A DNA stretch of 64,000 nt from Protoeuglena noctilucae (taxonomy: Eukaryota). Where the stretch lies: NCBI GenBank assembly GCA_958009085.1, contig OY253689.1:186001-250000 (forward strand), read 5' to 3'. Shown one piece after another: positions 10,467 to 44,972 of this stretch. Under the pieces are notes generated by a model, which saw only the letters and a list, made by a program, of their open reading frames with translations, did no database searches and was not told where the DNA came from. The translations under genes were made by a program, and so were the position numbers. Positions within the stretch are counted from its first letter, which is position 1. The number at the start of each line of letters is the position of its first letter.

Positions 10467-13400
10467 TTAGTACATGTCCTGCACTCTGGCGACGTCCGGT
10501 GCACCCGCAGCCACCCCGCGTGCCCGCAGCAGTGCCCCCGCGACCCTGAGCCCGTCCACGGCCGCGCTCACGATCCCACCCGCATACCCCGCGCCCTCCC
10601 CGGACGGGTAAAGCCCCCTCACTCGCGTGGACTCGAGGGTATCTTCGTCTCTCACGATGCGGACCGGGGCGCTCGTGCGCGTCTCGACCTGCGGATGCAA
10701 AACGTGCCGGGGTTGAAACGTGCTGTCTGGCACGCGCACCCGCAAAACTGCTTCAGGGGCCGCAACAGCAAAAGCTTTTGCAACAAAGGGCCTTTGCTCT
10801 GACCGCATGTCTTCATGCTATGCGCGACCGAGGCCGTTTTATGACGCGTGCGCAGGTGAATCGTGGCAGCATGGCAAACTCTCACCCCGTACAGCACGGC
10901 GTCTTCGTGCACGAAGCCATCGAGCTGTCGGGCGAAGCGGGACAGGGCGGCGCGCAGGGCGGCCGTGATGGGTGGCGGGTACAGTTGGTCCAGGCGAGCC
11001 GAGGTGGCGCCCAGGCGGTAAGATGAAGGCGGCAGCGTCTCTGCAGACGTGGCACGGATGGCGCGTTTGAACTGGTAGTGGAAACGTGCTGTGTTGTTGG
11101 TGGCCATGCAGTACATGGACAACATAGCTGGCGCAGTTGGAAACGTGCCGTGCGAGTGCGTCGTTTACAAAACCCTCGACTGGCAGCACGAGTGCCTGAA
11201 ACCCACGCCGCGTCACCTGAGAGCCTGCCGCTGACGAAGTCCGTCACTCTCTGCACTGGCGCCTGGAACTTCCCACCGCCCATCGTCGCCGCCCTTCTCT
11301 CCATCTCCTCCTGTCAGGGCCAAGACGATGCGCATTCCTTTCATTAAAGAGGCCATGGCATGAAAGCCGTACAGGTCACGTGGAGCACAACCACGCATGA
11401 CGGCCCCAGCCCCAGCCACACCCCCCTCCACCCTCACCTGCAGCCGCAGCCCCGCCAGCACCCCGTGCTGCCCCTCATACGGCGCCCAGTCCTCGGGCAC
11501 CACTCCGACCACCAACGCCGAGTTGGCCCATCGGCTGTTGCGCCTACTGAAGCTCATGCCATTCACGCAAAGGTGCATCTCGCTGGTGCTCGTCGGGACC
11601 ACCTGGCCCCCGGGACACATGCAGAAGGAGTAGACGTTGCGACGACGCCATTCGCTGTCCCCAAACCCGCCCTGTCTCTCCCTGCCACCCGCCTCCGCAC
11701 CACCCAATGTGTCGTCAACACCCACCGTCCCATCACTGCGACTCCCCGTCGCCTCATCACTACCTCTTGTGTCATCACGTGCTACCTTCCTTGTCACATC
11801 ACCCACTCCCGCACCCATAGGCCGCCCGTCTGACCCCAACTGCGCCCCCGACGGCCCCTCTGCCCCCACCGCCCCCTTCACCGCATCCCACCGATCCCCC
11901 TCCACGGTCGGATGCTCTCTCATCCACAAATCACGCTCCGCCATCTCCTCCGCACTCGCAGCCACCGGCCCCGTCCCTCCCACAGCCTCCCCTTCGCCTC
12001 TCCTCTCTTCACCGTCGCTGCTCGACCCCGACAGCCCTTCGCCCCCGATGTCCACCTCGGCTGCCAGCCTGTAGTCCGCCACGGGTGCTTTACCCTTGCC
12101 CCGGTCCACGTGCGCCGCCAGCGTGGGGCCGTACTGCGCCTCGTCAATCGCAGACTGGGGGTGCTCAATGCGGAACCCCATTGCGAAGCGCTTGGGCACG
12201 ATCTCCACTCCCGCCTCCAGGAGCTTCTGTGAGATGAGGCGAGAGGGACGTGCATGTGGCAGGGTGCGACATGGGAGGGAGCGACGTGGGAGGGTGCAGG
12301 GTTGGGTCTGAAGCGCAGGCGAGCTGTCGTGCGCGCGAACACGACGGCCCGTGCATGCGCTGTGCCTTGCAACGCCATGATTAGATGACGCGTGTGGGAG
12401 CGCCGCTGTGACATCGATATGTCACCTCATACAGGGGCCGTGCGCTGTGCCCGACTGCCGGGATGACCGCGGAGGCCGGGACGACCTCGCCTCCCCGCAG
12501 CCGCACGCCTCTCACGGCGCCGTCGCGAACGTCGATGTCTGCCACGGTGCACCCGAACCGGACCTTCGCTCCCTGAGACTCTGCGCCACAAGAGAGGACG
12601 AAATGAAGTCACTCTTTCGTGTCATCAATCTTGGGTGAGACATGTGAAGTGGGAGGGAGCAGGATAGGACACCACCAACTTTTTTAGGATAGGGTTCGAG
12701 GGCAGATGACTCACTGGATCCCACAAGCACATCATTTTGCACCTCACGTCCTCTCACGCTTCGTATCCCACACCCGCCTCACCTAGGTGGGCTCGGAAGC
12801 CCTGCAGGATGCGCACCATCCGGTCGGTGCCCAAATGGGGCTTGCCCGCCACGAGGATGGACTCGGGCGCACCGAACCGCACCAGCGTCTGCAGCACGCA
12901 CCGCACGGGGCCCGAGTTGCGCCCGATGCGTGTCGTCAGCTTGCCATCCGACCACGTGCCCGCGCCTCCCTCCCTGCAGAGCGCCGGCGAGTCGAGCATT
13001 CCGCACCCACCCATAGCACGCCCCTGGTCATCCGCGCAAACCCCAAGCACACAGCACTTGCCCGTAGCACAGGTTGCTGTCCGGGTCGAGCTGCCGGCGC
13101 ACGAACAGCGCCCCGATGTCACGCCCGCGCTCCTCCACGGGCTGTCCCTTCTCAAGCACCGTCACTGCAACCCCCGCCTCCGCCAACGCCAGCGCCGCAA
13201 AGTACCCTGCCGGGCCTGAGCCGACGACCACGACCGGCCTGGAGGCGTCAGATGCACCGACGCCGTCGCGTCTGGGCGCGTCCCCCGCCGTGGAAGGCAG
13301 CCCGACCGTCTGCCGCAGGGTGGTGGCAGCGTCGGGTAGCGTGTCGCCTGCCAATGCCTCCATGACGCCCGGGCGGGCGGAGAGGCGTCGGGCGCCAGCT

Positions 13401-37475: not shown

Positions 37476-38148
37476 GGCGAGCGCTAAACACAGCGTCCGC
37501 TAGTCGCGTCGTGACAACGACAGCAGATCCTTGTGCTCAGCGTGAAGAATCGCCTCAGACTTTCCTGATTGGCGACCTGGGAAGAGTTGACATGGGCGGA
37601 GATGCGGTCGCTCGACAAGGACACCTTGCATCTCCTCTCTCGCAACTACGCAATCACTTCTGTCTCATGTACCTTGCGAGAGACGACTGGGCCCTTTGAG
37701 GAGATGCGGCGCAACGTGGGGGCTCTCGCGGCCTTGACACGAGCAGCCGCAGGGGTCACTCGCATCCACGGCGCTCGTCTTTACTTCATTCGAGTACGAT
37801 CACGTCCTCGTTGAGCGGGAAAACGGCGCAAGCTCGCGACAAGGTCGGTTCCCAACTTCCACGACGCTCTGTCGCGAGGCTGGTGCGCAATCCCCTCGCC
37901 TTCGTTTCGACATATGCTCGGGACTCGGTAAAGGCAGGCCTTGTCTATGTTTCCTGTTGCCAGGGAACGGCACTGGCATTGACTGACCTCCCGGTCTCAA
38001 CGGCGTCTGCCTCGGCTAATTCAGCTCATTGGCTTTATGATGCAAGCTTCGTGGGTGTCGGATCCAGCTGTTCCCGCCGGTCCCAGCCTGGTTTGGCATG
38101 TGCAGGCATGTATGAAAAGCTCTCTCCGCCCAGGGTTACTTTATCAAA

Positions 38149-39912
38149 ATGTTTGGCGGTGTGGAGTACGGGAACATCCCAGCACCAAGCCGTGACTTGT
38201 TCCGGTCGTCTAAGACCCCGGGCGCGGACGCTGCAGCTGTGAAAGTGGTGAGTGTTTGTGCGCGCCTCCCCGCGCCTCTTTGCGTTTTTCGAGGCTGCAT
38301 TCGTGCGCACCCACCGCTTCGTAAACATATGATTGCAGGAGGCCTACTTGCGCAGCGAATCCATCCGGCTCGAGCACCGCAACTTGGATTGCATTCCCGA
38401 CGGCCTGCTGAGCAACCACGTCGTGCGGCTCGTGTCGCTGAAGGTCGGTGCCGAAACTCCTCTGGTATCTTACAGTCTCAGGCCTGCATCCGCGTGCTCT
38501 GCAGGGCCGCGAGCGAGCCGTGTGTCCCTCTCACGCAGGGAAACCGACTTCAGAGCCTTCCCGAGAGCGTCGCGTCATCATGGCCGCGGCTGGAGAAGCT
38601 GAACCTCGCGAATAACAAACTCACGGCGTTGCCAGAGTCCCTGGGAGCTCTCCCTGCCCTGCGCGAGCTCAACGTGGATGGCAACAACCTGTCGAGCCTG
38701 CCGGCGTCGCTAGCCCTCCTCCCAGCCCTGACGACGCTCCATCTCAACGGGAACCCCCCCTCGTGCCGCGTCGGTCCGTCCAAATACCTGTCGGACGTCT
38801 GGTACGGGAAGGAAGGGGAGCAGTTTGTCCCGGTATCGCTCGCGGACCTCCCAAAGAGGACCGCTGCGGTGCTTGCCGCGCTACAGGAGGTGCGAGCACG
38901 TGCATGGAGCGCACAGTTGGCGACAGCGCTCAGCATAGCGGGCGACGTTGACCTCTCGCAAGCGGTGCGCCTCGCAGGGTCTCCCAGCCGACCAGCGTGC
39001 GCGTGCGGAGGAGGCTCGGCGCGCTGCGGAGCAGGAGCGTCTCTTAAAGCAGGCGAAAGCGGTCTCGTCATCGGGGGATTTGGCTGCGGTGGAGGCTCTG
39101 CTGGCGCGAGTGAGGGATGCAGGCGTGGCGCCAGAGAAGACCCGGGCATTGGAGACCCAGGCAGGTCTGCTGCGCGACCTGGACGCCGCGACGGCCGCGC
39201 GGGACGCGGACGCCATCTCCCGCGGCCTCGTGGCCTTCGAGGCTGCCGTGGGGTCCCGGGCACGCGACGCTTCAGGTCCCACCGTGGCGGCCGCGCTGGC
39301 GGCGCGCCACGCCTTGCGCCTCGAGGCGGCAGAGCGGGAGCGGCAGCAGCGGGCGCGTGCGGCGGGGCCCTCGTCCCCTCCGCGGGCGCCCGGGGCGCGG
39401 CCCGGGGCCTCGGAGGCTTCCCCAGGCAAGGGCGGCCGTGCGGGGGTGCGGCCCGAGCCCAGCGGCCGCTCTGCCGGGGGGCTGTCTGGGGAGCGGTCGG
39501 GCAGCCAGAAGGCTTTCAAGAAGGAGATCGCGTACGAGTCGTGGCTGGAGGCCAAGCGCAAGGAGGAGCAAGAACAGGCGAGTGGCACATGTGGCAGATG
39601 TGACGTTCACATCCTGGGTGGCCTGTGTGGGGACACTTGCGTTTAGACAAGGGGAGATGGAATGGTCTGATGACGTCGTCTTTGTGACTTCCTCTTCCTG
39701 CGCAGATGGCGGCCATCAAGGCATTGAAGCGACGGGAGGTGAAGCGTGGGCATGCCGCATCCGTGTCGAGGGCGAGGGCGGAGCAGGACCTCTACAGTCG
39801 CGAGGCCGGGTGGCCGTCCGCGGTGGTCGAAGTCACGCCGCAGCCGAGGGACGTGCGGAGAATCGTCGAGTCGAGGAAGTACCGGCCTGGGAGGCAGGCG
39901 GCCCGAGCCTAG
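38149..39912 (+). CDS. Leucine-rich repeat protein with C-terminal coiled-coil
   Basis: LQSLPES..LEKLNLANNKLTALPESLGALPALRELNVDGNNLSSLPASLALLPALTTLHLNGNP. AYESWLEAKRKEEQEQ coiled coil. No signal peptide. Confidence 0.85.
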
Positions 39913-40160
39913 CCTAGGTAGTTTTAGAGATGCTTGACGGAGAGTAGACCATTTTTCGACGACAGCCGACAGAAGCATGTCAATCGCGAACGCGGAGTGG
40001 CGGGGGAAAGAGAAGGGGCGGCACGCGACCTGCTACTGTGCGGAGCGACGCTTCCCAAGCGCGCTCGACCGACTCGTCGTGAGCCGGCCGTCCCACAAGG
40101 ACGAGACGCAAAGTGGCACGATCCCACACGAAGCAGAGGAAGGGGCAGTCGCCCCCGATA

Positions 40161-41759
40161 TCACCGGATGCGGAGCGTGTCCCCCGGGTAGATGACGTCC
40201 GGGTCCCGAAGCTTGTCGGTGTTGCGCTCGAAAACGTCGAGGTAGTTGATGTTGTAGCACCCCGCGATGTCGCACAGCGTGTCGCCCTCCTGCACCTCGT
40301 AGTACACGGGTCGCGACGCCCACAGCCACCCCAGCACGCCCGCGGCGACCCCCAGAGCCACTGCGGGAGTGGCGGCGGGGTAGCTTTGAATCGACAACAC
40401 ACCGGCCAGAGGTGCACTCGGTGCGGTAGACGCGGTGGGGTCCATACAGCCCCACCTCCCTGCCAGCCCTCACCTGCCACAGGCACGGGCACACCGCCCC
40501 CGCCGCCCCCGGTTGCGCCCGAGCCCCGCGTCTTCGCCGACCCGTTCGCGGCCTTGTCTCCCATCGGACTCGCTGCCTTGCTGTCCGCCGAGTTTCTGCA
40601 AGGAGCCATCAAACGGATACAAACGCTCAATGTTGCATGTCGCGGGACCGCCACGTCGTAGGCTGTGTGGCATCCGCGCAAGCGAAGGCAGACAGCCACG
40701 TGATTCGCGCCCGCCACCTGCTGCGCTTCTTCCGACCCCCCCCGACCCCGAGGAGCAGGGACAGGCCCCGCTGAACGCCCCCCGCCACCGCCCCCAGAAT
40801 CCCTGCCAGCGGGTTCCCCTTCGGACTCTCCACCGGCTCGACAGGTGCCCGCTGCTTCTTGGAGCCCCGCGTCTTGCTGGTCGCCGCCACGGATGCCCCG
40901 GTCTTGGTGCTCCCCCGGGGGGACATGGGCGTGCGGGGCGTCGCGATGGAGCGTCCTGGGGTGCCCACCGCCGCGAAGCGCATCACGACGCACAGCTTGG
41001 CCACGGGGCGACCGGCCGGGTCCCTCAGTTCCAGCCAAGAGGGCCGGCCCTCGTACCCAGAGGGGTTCCTGAGGACACAGCAGGGTGTGACGCAGATGGA
41101 ATGGCGAGCGAGCGCTGCGATGGGCGATAGCTGCCCTGTGCAGCCGGCGCCACAAGCAGGGAACTGCTCTCGACGTCTTGGCGAGGCGCGGAGGCGCGGG
41201 TCACTTGAGGTTGACGCGGCACGTGCCGAGGACGAGGTCTCCCTTCGGGGCGACGTGCAGCATCTCCACGGTGGCCTCCGAGGTCTGGATGTCGTCGATG
41301 ATGAACTCCAGGTCCTTCATGAACTGCGCGGGGGCCGGGCAAGGCCGCGGCGTCGCGGGTGCGGAGGGGTCGCGACGGCTCGCATGGGCGTTGTTGGCCG
41401 CGCCGCGCACTCGCCTTGGGGGTCAGGCCGCTGGAGTTGCCGGTCTGGTACTCCTCGTTGCCAATGGATATGCGCACGTAGAAGACCGGGGGGCTCCCGA
41501 CATCGGCCACGACGTGGGTTGCCTCTGCAAGCACCGAGCGGATGCGCGGCCTTTTGAACCCCCAGGGCCCTGGTGCGCTGCGAAGGGCGCTGTGACAGGA
41601 CGATGCTCGAGAAGGTGCAAGTACGAAGCCAGTCTTCGCCCCGAAACTACGCGCGGGGGCCTGCATGGGCCGCGGCGCATGAGCATGCAGGTCCCCGCGC
41701 CTCTGCGGCGCGTCGTCGTCACCGATGACCGAGACGGCCAGCTTCCCCCTCGTTGTCAT
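40161..41759 (-). CDS. C2 domain - linker - single TM - LysM domain protein
   Basis: Spliced N-terminus MTTRGKLAVSVI|EATHV..FYVRISIGNEEYQTG..LTPK|FMKDLEFIIDD..ATVEMLH..GDLVLGTCRVNLK..WLELRD..AKLCVVMRF follows the C2 strand pattern. Hydrophobic AVALGVAAGVLGWLWA. LysM YEVQEGDTLCDIA...DPDVIYPGDTLRIR-stop. Confidence 0.8.
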
Positions 41760-42103
41760 GGCGGCCGGGGCCAGACGCCTTCGCCTGTCCCGCCGAGTCG
41801 GCCTTTGTCCTCTTGATGCAGCGCCTGAAGGGCCAAAGTGAGAGGACGACGTCGCAGCGTCCCAGAGCTAGGGTCAGGAGCTCGTGGTGTTTTGCGGGGA
41901 ACGAGCGCCGCGACGCCGTGACGCTGACGCGGGCGCCCCCTCCCTGGCAGGGGTCATACCCTGATCCCCGTGCGTCTCCGGGTCTCCACCCACGCGTGCT
42001 GTGGATGGCCTGAGGGAGATCGCCGGCGTCGGGGAGCGGCGCGCTGGACACCTGTTGCGCTTTTTGGTCCCTGCGGGGTCGGGTGTGGGTCGCAGGGGTC
42101 GCG

Positions 42104-44972
42104 ATGAGCTGGAGGCGGTCTTTTCGATTGCGGAGGGTGCTGGGGAATGGGATCCGCACGTGCTCGGGCGCCCTAGCCCAGCGGACGAACGCGGGGGGCC
42201 TGGCGACGCACGCAAGGTGGGTGCTCGCGCTCTCGCCGCTTCATTGGCTCCGATGCTGACGAGGGACGAGGCCACCTCTGTCCCTCGGCGGCCTCGTGGC
42301 CGTGGCGAGTCGTAGCGGGCCCTTGCATCGCCGATTTCCCTCCTCCTCGCGCACCTTGGCCCCGAGCTTGCGTCCGGCAGAGTTAAGTTGCAGTCGAGCC
42401 TCGCCATCGCGCCTCCCGAGGCCTGTGCCGCGACCCCCCCCAGCAACTAACCCTTTTCCGCTTCTTCCCGGGCCCCGGGGCCACACCGTCCGCCTCACTG
42501 TTGTCCCCAAGTAGTTGGATACCCCTTGCATCCGGTGGCTGGGTCGGAGACCCCGGGGGGACCGCCGAGGGCGCGGGACGCGGCGTGGACACGCTGCCTG
42601 CGTAGACGCCCCGGGATCTGGCCGCTCCACCCTCGCAGGCATGCCGGACAGCCATCCCTGGCTCTCTGGACGAGGACGGGGGCGGCGGGCCAGCAGATGG
42701 TGCAGACGAGACGCTTTGCGGGGCTCCCTCCCCACGAAGAGCTCAAGGTGCTGGCGCATGCCTCGCGCGCCGCAGCTGGGGCCCGGATCCCGAAGCTGAG
42801 CGTCGAGACAGCGGGAGCAGGTCCAGACTCCCTTCTCCTCGCGCCGCAGATGCCGGCGCTGTCCCCGACGATGAACCAGGGCAACATTCTCGAGTGGAAG
42901 AAGAAGGAGGGCGAGAGCATCGCGCCCGGCGACGTCATCTGCGTCATTGAGACGGACAAGGCGACGCTGGACTGGGAGGCGCAGGAGGAGGGCGTTTTGG
43001 CGAAGATCCTGGTGCAGGCGGGGGCACGGGACGTGCCGGTGGGCAAGCCGGTTGCGGTTCTGGTGGAGGACGAGGGGGCGGTCGCATCCTTCGCGAACTT
43101 CTCTCCGAAGGCGCAGTCGGCGGCGGGGTCGTCGGGGGCGGCGCCGGCGGAGGAGGAGCCAGCGGAGTCGAGCGGGGGCGGGGGCGGGCAGTGGCCGGTG
43201 CACCAGGTGGCGCAGATGCCGGCGCTTTCTCCGACGATGAACCAGGGCAATATCCTCGAGTGGAAGAAGAACGTTGGGGACACGATCGCCCCAGGGGACG
43301 TCATCTGCGTGGTGGAGACGGACAAGGCGACGATCGACTGGGAAGCTCAGGAGGAGGGTGTCATCGCCCAGCTCCTCGTGCCGGCCGGCACGAAGGACAT
43401 CCCCGTGGGCAAGCCCGTCATGATTCTGGTCGAGGATGAGGCGGACGTCAAGGCATTCGCGAACTTCACGGCCGCGGACGCGGAGGGCGGCGCGCCCAAG
43501 CCTAAGGCGAAGGCCGAGGCTCCTAAGAAGGGAGCCGTGAGCGACAAGGCGCCCAAGAAGGAGGAAGGTGAGAGGGGTGGGGTAAGACCCCAGCAGGCGG
43601 CGGTGGTCACGAGCCCTGCGTTATAGACGGGAGCGCAGGTATGAAGACTTGCCAAGCAACGAACAAACCATTCCTTCCGGCTCTTCCTCGCAGCTCCCAA
43701 GCCCGCCGCTGCGGCGGCGCCCCAGCCCCGCTCTGCGCCGTCCCCGGGGGGCCGCGTGGTGGCGACGCCGTACAGCCGCAAGCTGGCGCAGGAGAAGGGC
43801 GTGTCGCTGTCGCAGGTGCAGGGTTCGGGTCCCAACGGCTGCATCGTCGCGGCGGACGTGGCGGGCTACCAGGGCCCAGTGGGCGCGCCGGGGGTGGCGG
43901 CCGCGGTGGGCGGGGCGCTCCCCGCCGGGGACTACAGGGACGTGCCGGTGTCCCAGATCCGCCGCGTGATCGCCCGGCGCCTGTTGGAGAGCAAGCAGAC
44001 CATCCCGCACTACTACCTGACCGTGGACGTCAGCCTCGACAAGCTCACGGCGGTCCGCAAGCAGCTCAACGACCAGCTGGCCTCCCGGGGGACCAAGCTG
44101 TCCGTCAACGATTTCGTCGTCAAGGCCGCCGCGCTGGCGCTCCGGGAGGTGCCCGAGATGAACGCCTCCTGGCAGACCGAATTCATCCGGCAGTACACGG
44201 TGAGCTGCGTGCGGGCGGGCAGCCGTAGAGTGTGCGCGGCGGGCGGCCATGGTGGCCATTTGTGCTGTTCGGGTGGCTTTGCTTGTCTCGCTCGCCGGCT
44301 GCGAGAGCGAGTGACTCGCCACATTGTTTTCTCGATCGTCTGCGCAGAGTGCGGACGTGACAGTGGCCGTGCAGACGGACTCCGGTCTCATGGTGCCCGT
44401 CGTCAAGGGGGCGCACAACAAGGGGCTCACGGCTATCTCCGCCGAGGTCAAGGACCTGGCCGCCAAGGTGCGTGGGCGGTTCGCATGCACATAGGCCCCT
44501 GACACTCACAGCACTGCGGATGCGCCTGTGGCTTTACAACCAAACATACTTTTTCATAAAGGGGGCGCAGGCGCGCACGGTTCTCACCCGTGTCATCTCA
44601 CGCAACCTTTTTGGTTCTCTTACCCGCGCCTGTCTGTTGTCATGACTCCCCGCACGGCCCCCTTTTTCGCAGGCGAAGGAGGGGAAGCTGAAGCCGCACG
44701 AAATGGAGGGAGGCACGTTCACCGTGTCCAATCTCGGCATGTTCGGGATCCGGAGCTCCGCCGGCGTGATCAACCCGCCCCAGGCCGGCATTCTGGCCGT
44801 GGGCGCCGCCCGGCCCGAGGTGGTGATGACGGGCGACGGGGGCTTCCGGGAATCGCAGGTCGTCTCCTGTACCGTGTCGTGCGACCACCGCGTGGTCGAT
44901 GGGGCTGTGGGGGCGCAGTGGCTCCAGGCGTTCAAACGCTACATGGAGGACCCGATCACGATGATCCTCTGA
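42104..44972 (+). CDS. DLA1: Mitochondrial pyruvate dehydrogenase E2 (dihydrolipoamide acetyltransferase) with two lipoyl domains
   Basis: Two MPALSPTM...ETDKAT lipoyl domains, E1/E3-binding [15 protein letters not shown], catalytic [20 protein letters not shown] presequence. Confidence 0.93.

Follow-up and report, generated by a model that had tools for sequence, protein, structure and literature searches.

The 64,000-nucleotide window analyzed here comes from Protoeuglena noctilucae contig OY253689.1 (contig positions 186,001 to 250,000). Its minus strand carries, at window positions 40161-41759, a gene of six exons whose spliced translation gives a 939-nt coding sequence for 312 amino acids with zero internal stops (Table 1). 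The coding region runs from the ATG at 41759 to the final base of the TGA stop at 40161, exactly the limits proposed in an earlier reading of the DNA made from the letters alone (the sequence-only reading). This ATG is the first in frame downstream of an in-frame stop at 41868-41870, and RNA contigs extend to 41855-41865, indicating a 5' UTR of at least about 100 nt.

Splicing was examined with contigs of three marine metatranscriptome runs from one study (X2, X3, and X4), and with DNA run X5 for comparison. Four of the five introns were confirmed to the base by RNA. One of these is the GC-AG intron that the sequence-only reading had included in its six-exon model, and the ends of this intron read CT..GC on the plus strand in the RNA contigs. 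In DNA run X5 the whole stretch was continuous and no intron was skipped. The RNA-supported gene model has modest value of its own, the entry for this gene in the protein database being only a 94-aa mis-called fragment.

Table 1. Features of the MIN1-like gene of P. noctilucae, in window coordinates
Feature	Position	Strand	Evidence
MIN1-like coding region, ATG to stop	40161..41759	-	end-to-end match to Chlamydomonas MIN1 and family HMM
Exon 1, residues 1-13, start codon and first C2 strand	41723..41759	-	spliced translation
Intron 1, GT-AG, 198 nt	41525..41722	-	joint 41524/41723 in X2, X3, and X4 RNA; absent from DNA run X5
Exon 2, residues 13-49, C2	41415..41524	-	translation and RNA contigs
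Intron 2, GC-AG, 91 nt	41324..41414	-	joint 41323/41415 in X2, X3, and X4
Exon 3, residues 50-89, C2	41205..41323	-	translation and RNA contigs
Intron 3, GT-AG, 136 nt	41069..41204	-	joint 41067/41204, cut +1, in X2, X3, and X4
Exon 4, residues 89-206, last C2 strands (ending at about 40957) and basic linker, with Gly-rich hydrophobic segment (about 40741-40809)	40718..41068	-	RNA only over 40807-41068
Intron 4, GT-AG, 122 nt, predicted	40596..40717	-	reading frame and splice consensus
Exon 5, residues 206-247, linker remainder and helix start	40474..40595	-	RNA over 40474-40529, joined to exon 6
Intron 5, GT-AG, 113 nt	40361..40473	-	joint 40360/40474 in X3 and X4
Exon 6, residues 247-312 and stop, helix remainder (to about 40314) and LysM (Pfam match at about 40167-40301)	40161..40360	-	Pfam LysM, hydropathy, and RNA contigs

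RNA contigs end at 40503/40529 on one side of intron 4 and at 40807-40821 on the other. Because no RNA contig covers 40530-40806, the borders of intron 4 are predicted ones. This stretch is G-rich and of low complexity, and the gap in cover argues neither for nor against a join of the C2 and LysM parts. The donor and acceptor chosen (CAG/GTGGCG ... CCTTGCAG/A) form the pair with the best consensus, and there are 116 alternative in-frame, stop-free pairs. From homology and the reading frame, we infer that C2 and LysM are encoded by a single mRNA in P. noctilucae. The same region might instead hold the border between two genes, one for a C2-only protein that ends at the stop reached by the exon 4 frame if unspliced (40627-40629), and one for a small signal-anchored LysM protein that starts at an in-frame ATG within exon 5. 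Both the stop and the ATG are present, and the RNA gap would fit such a border. However, both domains lie on one chain in every full-length relative, including ORFs from assembled transcripts, and the family HMM described below covers the whole spliced model in a single stretch. Eleven of 24 relatives scanned passed both Pfam cut-offs (C2 and LysM) in one protein, among them a Coleochaete ORF from a transcriptome (P0060); a Pyramimonas ORF (P0061) passed for C2, and its LysM scored 0.3 bits under the cut-off. The GGG-[RK]KKRS motif that closes exon 4 is also found in the pedinophyte protein P0064, where it is followed by linker, helix, and LysM, all on one chain. We consider two separate genes exceedingly improbable.

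Domain anatomy of the encoded protein

The 312-aa protein begins with a C2 domain and ends with a LysM domain; between them lie a basic linker and then one strong hydrophobic helix. The sequence-only reading had recognized this arrangement, and homology, hydropathy, and Pfam searches bear it out. The exon 6 translation matched Pfam LysM (PF01476) with an E value of 3.3e-9 (37 bits, cut-off 20.9). LysM starts at residue 266 and spans about 45-50 residues. The core YYEVQEGDxLC...C...DPxxIYPGD is present, and its motif columns are invariant in alignments A1 and A3. The two Cys that had been noted are there (C-x4-C); the first does not vary among 33 family members, and conservation of the second is at least 90%. 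The Pfam model of LYK4/5 LysM3 matched the exon 6 LysM with an E value of only 0.23.

Pfam gave no C2 match in the separate exon pieces of 36, 39, and 116 aa. Because pieces of this size are too short, single-exon Pfam searches are uninformative for C2, and homologs were used instead. The C2 assignment is by sequence homology to the C2 regions of P0064 and of Chlamydomonas reinhardtii MIN1 (71 and 46 of 124 residues identical, respectively), both of which pass the Pfam C2 cut-off (41 and 42.6 bits, cut-off 22). The first C2 strand begins at residue 5, which is aligned with MIN1 residue 3, and the family HMM match also begins at residue 5. No signal or transit peptide was found, the protein opening directly into C2, in agreement with the sequence-only reading on the signal peptide.

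Predicted structures were available for two relatives. The AlphaFold2 model of family member P0001 (pLDDT 87.6) has eight strands, a long helix, a helix at residues 172-190, and a beta-alpha-alpha-beta LysM. Its best matches in the PDB were the C2A domains of otoferlin and dysferlin (E 7e-10 to 1e-9, target TM 0.81-0.85), which at the level of the predicted model confirms the C2 fold for P0001. In the P0064 model, C2 (1-120) and the helix with LysM (248-312) have pLDDT values above 87, and the linker is disordered. When the family profile was searched against solved structures, the best sequence match was extended synaptotagmin-2 C2A (E 7.8e-14). Aligned to this domain and to the family, the Protoeuglena protein keeps Asp at two of the five positions that we take to be the canonical C2 Ca2+-ligand positions. 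It is thus plausible that three of the five ligands are missing, as had been suggested when the C2 was said to lack most Ca2+-ligating Asp residues.

The strong helix spans residues 241-259 (KD maximum 2.03) and is followed by 53 residues. The 18 other members examined have a helix placed in the same way just before LysM, with a KD maximum of at least 1.97 in 15 and lower values in P0008, P0006, and P0076; 48-74 residues follow the helix in other members. The 15 residues before the helix contain two K+R and no D+E, and the 15 after it contain one K+R and three D+E. The N-side flank carries three to eight K/R in the chlorophyte members examined, and the streptophyte members P0059 and P0068 show the opposite charge bias around the helix.

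The linker of 114 aa is indeed basic (K+R 20, D+E 4), but its description as Ser/Pro-rich does not hold: Gly (24), Ser and Thr (22), and Ala (15) predominate, with only eight Pro. The earlier count of one hydrophobic helix was right for the strong helix and overlooked a second, weaker, Gly-rich hydrophobic segment at residues 176-198 (KD up to 1.52). A folded or helical structure for this segment was considered and rejected, given pLDDT values below 50 in the P0064 model and no Pfam match on exon 4.

Relationship to MIN1 and spread of the family

A profile search with alignment A2 retrieved 36 proteins, including P0017, which is C. reinhardtii CHLRE_12g490700v5 and is named 'Mini-eyespot' in UniRef. 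By blastp, residues 5-312 of the Protoeuglena protein matched residues 3-322 of the 322-residue MIN1 with 34% identity (E 5e-46). An HMM built from 25 database members of the family, with the Protoeuglena protein left out, matched the spliced protein in one stretch over HMM positions 3-293 of 293 (E 2.8e-64, 211 bits); the best of 200 shuffled controls scored 2.8 bits. Among the high-ranking profile matches were giant proteins such as P0039, with lengths of up to 3909 aa and up to 21 stretches; these are generic multi-C2 arrays that score by summation and were rejected as relatives of MIN1.

The two proteins share the order of their parts, a nearly equal size (312 and 322 aa), a C2 that begins at residue 3-5, a linker, a helix placed 5-8 residues before LysM, and the 53 residues that follow this helix. 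Within LysM, 29 of 50 residues are identical, and the motifs GKL-VSVIEA, PKF-KD, P-GDL--G, PMSP, RPVYYEVQE-DTLC, and YPGD-LRIR are common to both. They differ in the linker, which is unrelated in sequence, and in the Gly-rich hydrophobic segment, which is absent from MIN1 (best second segment KD 0.39 in MIN1 versus 1.52 here). The helix is followed by RKR in MIN1 and by SR in the Protoeuglena protein, and in loop 1, where the second Ca2+-ligand Asp would lie, MIN1 has Asn and the Protoeuglena protein Val.

The nearest relative is P0064 (CAG9461275.1) of Pedinophyceae sp. YPF-701, an unnamed, uncharacterized gene prediction, with 43.5% identity over 324 columns. LysM is identical at 35 of 50 residues, and both proteins have a Gly-rich segment followed by GGG-KKKRS. 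The divergence between them is large, which shows that the alga studied here is a different species from YPF-701. In the gene tree these two proteins are sisters (SH-aLRT 100), and the pair lies inside a starred clade whose 11 rows also include Myrmecia, Tetraselmis, and the Chlamydomonadales, MIN1 among them, so that the Protoeuglena protein and MIN1 belong to one core-chlorophyte clade. The first tree was in agreement, with a clade of 16 rows (support 100/98). On the basis of these comparisons, the Protoeuglena gene is likely to be a full-length ortholog of C. reinhardtii MIN1 (mini-eyespot), an eyespot-organizing protein.

Family members range from pedinophytes and prasinophytes to streptophyte algae. 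Full-length proteins with C2 and LysM were found in the streptophyte algae Chara braunii, Chlorokybus, Coleochaete, and Spirogloea and in one trebouxiophyte, and C2 and LysM were the only Pfam domains in family members. The matches seen comprise one copy per species, and the gene tree broadly tracks species groups, the pattern that an old gene kept in single copy should give. A literature search, with most subscription journals outside its scope, found no survey of MIN1 beyond Chlamydomonas; the later work on MIN1 that it turned up consisted of the 2011 papers, a 2015 proteome paper, and a 2024 review. The ORF for PDH E2 that neighbors the gene was 51-59% identical to proteins of many green algae and plants, with 59% for the YPF-701 protein and 64% for one Scenedesmus protein, whose match spanned no more than 27% of the query. 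None of these is a close relative, and the alga is placed here as a chlorophyte, related to pedinophytes by its MIN1.

Proposed role and comparison with known systems

For the description of MIN1, PMC3084665 and PMC3276157 cite Mittelmeier et al. (2008, Eukaryot Cell 7:2100). According to passages of these two papers, it is "a C2/LysM-domain protein" of the eyespot proteome, min1 mutants have miniature, disorganized eyespots with less ChR1 and EYE2, and MIN1 is postulated to act in the attachment between chloroplast envelope and plasma membrane. PMC3084665 also states that EYE2 and ChR1 are still co-positioned in most photoautotrophically grown min1 cells and that acetate restores min1 eyespots, which its authors read as redundancy. 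Pedinophyceae sp. YPF-701, the source of the nearest relative, has a prominent eyespot according to the relevant passage of PMC12574857.

The sequence-only reading had proposed a candidate novel glycan-sensing membrane receptor of uncharacterized architecture. Because the C2/helix/LysM architecture had been described for MIN1 in 2008, the claim of novelty fails, and the discovery value of the locus is small: it adds a MIN1 ortholog in a marine chlorophyte. Among the roles offered in that reading, organelle envelope contact agrees with what the cited passages postulate for Chlamydomonas MIN1, and nothing points to microbial recognition.

If the Protoeuglena protein acts as postulated for MIN1, the helix would anchor it in a single membrane, for which the outer chloroplast envelope is the most likely candidate and the plasma membrane a less likely one. 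C2 and the linker would then lie on the cytosolic side, and the small LysM on the far side of the membrane, in an intermembrane or extracytosolic space. C2 may bind the lipids of the facing membrane constitutively, given that three of the five Ca2+ ligands are apparently missing, and LysM could hold the far end to a putative glycan or glycoprotein partner. If the Gly-rich segment at 176-198 were to span the membrane, LysM would be on the same side as C2. In the cited parts of the MIN1 literature this tether model is a postulate, unproven even in Chlamydomonas. The ligand of the MIN1 LysM, the host membrane, and the topology are experimentally tractable.

To our knowledge, Spirogloea, Coleochaete, Chara, and Chlorokybus have no eyespot, and Zygnematophyceae have neither a flagellate stage nor an eyespot. 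Because the family occurs in these four algae, a role confined to the eyespot would not be the whole story. As an alternative, the MIN1 family might be a general, ancient tether or anchor of the plastid envelope, not specific to the eyespot, whose LysM binds a glycan layer between the envelope membranes. In plastids that still have peptidoglycan this layer would consist of it, and in the others of a different glycan. Chlamydomonas would have specialized the protein for the eyespot only later, and Protoeuglena would use it more generally, to position the chloroplast or to make envelope contacts. LysM modules bind peptidoglycan and chitin, and plastid peptidoglycan genes are kept in some of the lineages with family members. 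The spread of full-length members into eyespot-less algae and one trebouxiophyte, a gene tree that broadly follows species groups, and a LysM core more conserved than any other part of the protein are all consistent with such a tether. On the other side, Chlamydomonas is without most peptidoglycan synthesis genes and yet has kept MIN1 with a conserved LysM, and the sole genetic evidence on the family is an eyespot phenotype. The argument from the missing peptidoglycan genes has also been made, for another envelope LysM protein, in the Chloroplast Protein Atlas preprint. We regard a general envelope tether as unlikely. A fuller version, in which the family is Viridiplantae-wide and predates the eyespot, LysM holds an inter-envelope glycan (ancestrally peptidoglycan), a cytosolic C2, probably working without Ca2+, connects plastid and plasma membrane, and the membrane-active Gly-rich segment found here and in P0064 is a lineage-specific second contact, seems to us slightly more doubtful still.

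The receptor that had been proposed would be a type II protein of the plasma membrane, with an extracellular LysM sensing microbial or wall glycans and a cytosolic C2 signaling. Plant LysM receptors sense chitin and peptidoglycan, the LysM of the Protoeuglena protein is well conserved, the charge bias around the helix is compatible with an N-in/C-out orientation, and a transit peptide is absent. Against this, the characterized ortholog is an eyespot-assembly protein and no immune receptor, the protein has only one LysM, of about 45 residues, and lacks a kinase or any other signaling domain, and one copy per species in the matches seen is at odds with a receptor-like expansion. Such a receptor is very unlikely, and an ortholog of MIN1 remains the preferred identification.

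Plant LysM receptor kinases and LYM proteins have a signal peptide and three extracellular LysM domains at the N-terminus, with a kinase or a GPI anchor at the C-terminus. The Protoeuglena protein resembles LYM/LYP proteins and receptor kinases of the CERK1 type in that LysM adjoins a membrane helix. It differs in the opposite layout, with C2 N-terminal and LysM C-terminal, as the sequence-only reading had pointed out, and in having one LysM and no signal peptide; Pfam found no kinase in the exon pieces or in any family member scanned. 

Tethers of the extended synaptotagmin type carry an SMP lipid-transfer domain and several C2 domains behind an N-terminal anchor, and extended synaptotagmin-2 is a membrane-contact tether. 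Extended synaptotagmins and plant SYT-type tethers share with the Protoeuglena protein a membrane anchor combined with a cytosolic C2 able to reach another membrane, and extended synaptotagmin-2 C2A, which came first when solved structures were searched by sequence with the family profile, was also among the fold matches. The Protoeuglena protein has no SMP, a single C2, a C-terminal anchor, and a far-side LysM. As judged by this comparison, the likeness is one of mechanism by analogy and not one of membership.

In tail-anchored proteins, no more than about 30 residues separate the helix from the C-terminus, and the Protoeuglena protein, with its longer segment after the helix, falls outside this class. 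A second eyespot-assembly protein of the chloroplast envelope, Chlamydomonas EYE2, likewise combines one membrane helix with a LysM; it also has a thioredoxin motif and is located at the eyespot, as reported in the passage cited from PMC3084665.

Gene model and transcripts

G+C content is 61–70% throughout the window, which contains spliced eukaryotic genes. One of these, a MIN1-like gene on the minus strand, starts and stops exactly where the sequence-only reading had placed it, and the gene model agrees with that reading in having six exons and one GC-AG intron. Exon borders were placed by anchors. Joined, the six exons form a reading frame of 939 nt for a protein of 312 aa, uninterrupted by stops; GT-AG borders occur in four introns, and intron 2 has GC-AG.

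Coordinates of genes, exons and introns in the window
Feature	Positions	Strand	Remarks
FAD-depend_C gene (long ORF)	11216–12421	minus	Pfam PF21688, E 1.6e-35
Leucine-rich repeat (LRR) gene	38116–39912	plus	Pfam LRR_4, E 8e-14
MIN1-like gene	40161–41759	minus	ATG at 41759; last base of TGA at 40161
Exon 1	41759–41723	minus	
Intron 1	41525–41722	minus	Skipped exactly in RNA contigs
Exon 2	41524–41415	minus	
Intron 2	41324–41414	minus	Skipped exactly in RNA contigs; gene-strand ends GC..AG
Exon 3	41323–41205	minus	
Intron 3	41069–41204	minus	Skipped exactly in RNA contigs
Exon 4	41068–40718	minus	
Exon 5	40595–40474	minus	
Intron 5	40361–40473	minus	Skipped exactly in RNA contigs
Exon 6	40360–40161	minus	
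Pyruvate dehydrogenase E2 (dihydrolipoamide acetyltransferase) gene	42030–43623	plus	Two lipoyl domains

RNA evidence came from contigs of three runs of one marine metatranscriptome study, and was complemented by the "organism A" run X5. Sampled words of 40000–41900 were present at a fraction of 0.40–0.43 in four RNA runs of the marine study, and all were present in four "organism A" runs. X5 carries 40000–41900 in one piece with no joint and is unspliced DNA. The MIN1-like gene is expressed in the sea, with four introns spliced. Its RNA contigs reach upstream to 41855–41865, indicating a 5′ UTR of about 100 nt.

None of the contigs of the three RNA runs covered 40530–40806, which holds intron 4, the join of the C2-bearing exons to the exons for the helix and LysM domain. 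Without a splice at intron 4, the exon-4 frame runs into a stop at 40627–40629. The chosen donor and acceptor have the best consensus, but there are 116 further in-frame, stop-free pairs. These borders are inferred, and C2 and LysM probably share one mRNA in this alga.

The only database trace of the gene is P0158, a 94-aa "protein" (40161–40445, minus strand) that shares 67 residues with exon 6 at 100% identity. The 27 residues at its start come from intron 5 read as coding sequence, and the entry stems from prokaryote-style ORF calling applied to unspliced DNA.

Membership in the MIN1 family

Searching longer proteins with the exon-6 peptide gave nine matches. Two of these, from [Myrmecia] bisecta (C2 E 1.1e-11) and Chara braunii, passed the Pfam cut-offs for both C2 and LysM, and four more had LysM with a sub-threshold C2. 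A profile built from six of the nine retrieved 36 proteins, including Chlamydomonas reinhardtii CHLRE_12g490700v5, named "Mini-eyespot" (MIN1) in UniRef, and others from Volvox, Gonium, Tetrabaena, Astrephomene, Pleodorina, Haematococcus, Tetraselmis, Pycnococcus, and Cymbomonas. No land-plant protein was among the 36, which were obtained with a word pre-filter and 8000 scored candidates from a database that does include land-plant proteins. When 1.84 billion representatives were searched exhaustively with a profile, 7213 matches had E ≤0.001, 83 of them E ≤1e-30. Among the best 150 of the 7213, at least 19 matched in a single stretch running from C2 into LysM, including proteins of Pedinophyceae sp. 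YPF-701, Pyramimonas obovata, Chlorokybus atmophyticus, Coleochaete scutata, and Spirogloea muscicola. Both Pfam cut-offs were passed by 11 of 24 proteins when two scans were combined. Very large proteins (P0039–P0042 and similar, up to 3909 aa) were rejected as relatives of MIN1; they carry 10–22 tandem C2 domains, with filamin repeats in one, and ranked high only from summed C2 matches.

The spliced model aligned with MIN1 from residues 5–312 to residues 3–322 of 322 (34% identity, E 5e-46), and Volvox proteins aligned similarly. A family HMM of 25 database members, with the window protein left out, matched it in one stretch that spans HMM positions 3–293 of 293 (E 2.8e-64, 211 bits), against 2.8 bits for the best of 200 shuffled sequences. 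The nearest relative was P0064, from Pedinophyceae sp. YPF-701 (43.5% identity over 324 columns). Identity in the C2 and LysM regions was 46/124 and 29/50 with MIN1, and 71/124 and 35/50 with P0064. In the multiple alignment, common motifs extended over the whole length of the window protein and its relatives, and conserved parts were gap-free at every exon junction. A tree of 24 rows paired the window protein with P0064 as sisters (SH-aLRT 100), within a starred clade that also holds Myrmecia, Tetraselmis, and Chlamydomonadales including MIN1; members from prasinophytes and streptophytes lay outside that clade, roughly matching species relations. A 26-row tree was consistent with this.

The interpretation given in the sequence-only reading is partly supported: domain order and family match bear out its C2, helix, and LysM layout, and "organelle envelope contact" was one of the roles it offered. 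Its claim of novelty is refuted on its own terms, since the layout had already been described for MIN1: Mittelmeier et al. in 2008 reportedly recognized a C2 at the N-terminus and a LysM at the C-terminus, with a transmembrane sequence between them, and termed the architecture novel. The observation itself is confirmed, and the window protein is a further MIN1 family member of known architecture.

Domains, fold, and proposed role

The exon-6 translation matched Pfam LysM (E 3.3e-9, 37 bits; cut-off 20.9). Pfam C2 found no match in the three C2 exon pieces, each scanned separately rather than as spliced protein. By sequence profile, the best solved-structure match was the C2A domain of extended synaptotagmin-2 (E 7.8e-14). 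An AlphaFold2 model of the family member P0001, built with 25 aligned sequences (pLDDT 87.6), comprises eight strands and a long helix, together with a helix at 172–190 and a beta-alpha-alpha-beta LysM. Foldseek against the PDB placed the C2A domains of otoferlin and dysferlin on top (E 7e-10 to 1e-9, target TM 0.81–0.85), followed by many other C2 domains. The P0064 model has a confident C2 (1–120) and a confident helix plus LysM (248–312); its linker, including a Gly-rich segment, is disordered, with low confidence.

Judged by the alignments to extended synaptotagmin-2 C2A and the family, the window protein keeps Asp only at the first loop-1 and last loop-3 positions, two of what we take to be the five canonical C2 Ca2+-ligand positions. 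In the last C2 strand, the Cys of E-x-C-L is invariant in 25 members and at least 90% conserved in 33. LysM helix 1 carries C-x4-C, two Cys five residues apart, both of which all 25 members have; among 33, one never varies and conservation of the other is at least 90%, and in the Spirogloea member the second is shifted two residues later. These Cys might serve in a disulfide, in metal binding, or in lipidation.

The strong hydrophobic segment spans residues 241–259 (KD 2.03), with flanking charges of +2/0 before and +1/−3 after. Chlorophyte members examined have 3–8 K/R ahead of the helix, and two streptophyte members show the reverse bias. The linker (residues 127–240), which had been described as basic and Ser/Pro-rich, is basic (K+R 20, D+E 4) but rich in Gly, Ser/Thr, and Ala, with only 8 Pro. 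Within it lies a moderately hydrophobic, Gly-rich segment (residues 176–198; 40741–40809, minus strand; KD up to 1.52) with a mid-segment Arg, followed by GGG-RKKRS. Among 19 family members examined, only P0064 shares it (KD 1.66); in the others the second hydrophobic segment has KD ≤1.09. If membrane-spanning, this segment would change the topology. Its restriction to these two proteins is of continuing interest, as are the ligand, membrane, and topology of MIN1 proteins and their occurrence in eyespot-less lineages.

According to Boyd et al. (2011; PMC3084665, PMC3276157), min1 mutants grown without acetate have miniature eyespots with disorganized pigment granules, and min1 has reduced amounts of ChR1 and EYE2. 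PMC3084665 also reports that EYE2 and ChR1 remain co-positioned in most min1 cells and that acetate restores organization, which weakens a strict tether role for MIN1. The source of P0064 has a prominent eyespot, according to PMC12574857. A preprint contends that in Chlamydomonas, where most peptidoglycan synthesis genes are missing, envelope LysM proteins must bind other glycans.

In the mechanism we propose, the helix would serve as the membrane anchor, leaving the C2 and linker exposed to the cytosol and the LysM on the opposite side, as the charge bias around the helix suggests. The C2 domain would bind the opposing membrane, probably independently of Ca2+, and the LysM would bind a putative glycan or partner. 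The whole protein may contribute to holding the envelope against the plasma membrane at the eyespot. Some algae with family members are not known to have an eyespot; this and the reversed charge bias in the two streptophyte members both count against the eyespot-tether model as a full account.

Neighboring genes

The LRR gene, whose last exon begins at about 39703, is convergent with the MIN1-like gene, their stops lying 248 bp apart. RNA contigs pass through the MIN1-like 3′ UTR into this neighbor; as these unstranded contigs cross from one gene to the other, the two 3′ ends abut or overlap. The E2 gene is divergent, and its RNA contigs begin at 42030–42036, leaving only about 165 bp to where the MIN1-like transcripts have their 5′ end, a spacing that makes a shared bidirectional promoter possible. 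Both the MIN1-like and the E2 protein of Pedinophyceae sp. YPF-701 are listed on one contig of 2,195,762 bases. Judged from this common contig, the linkage may be conserved. The FAD-depend_C ORF is another real gene of the window.
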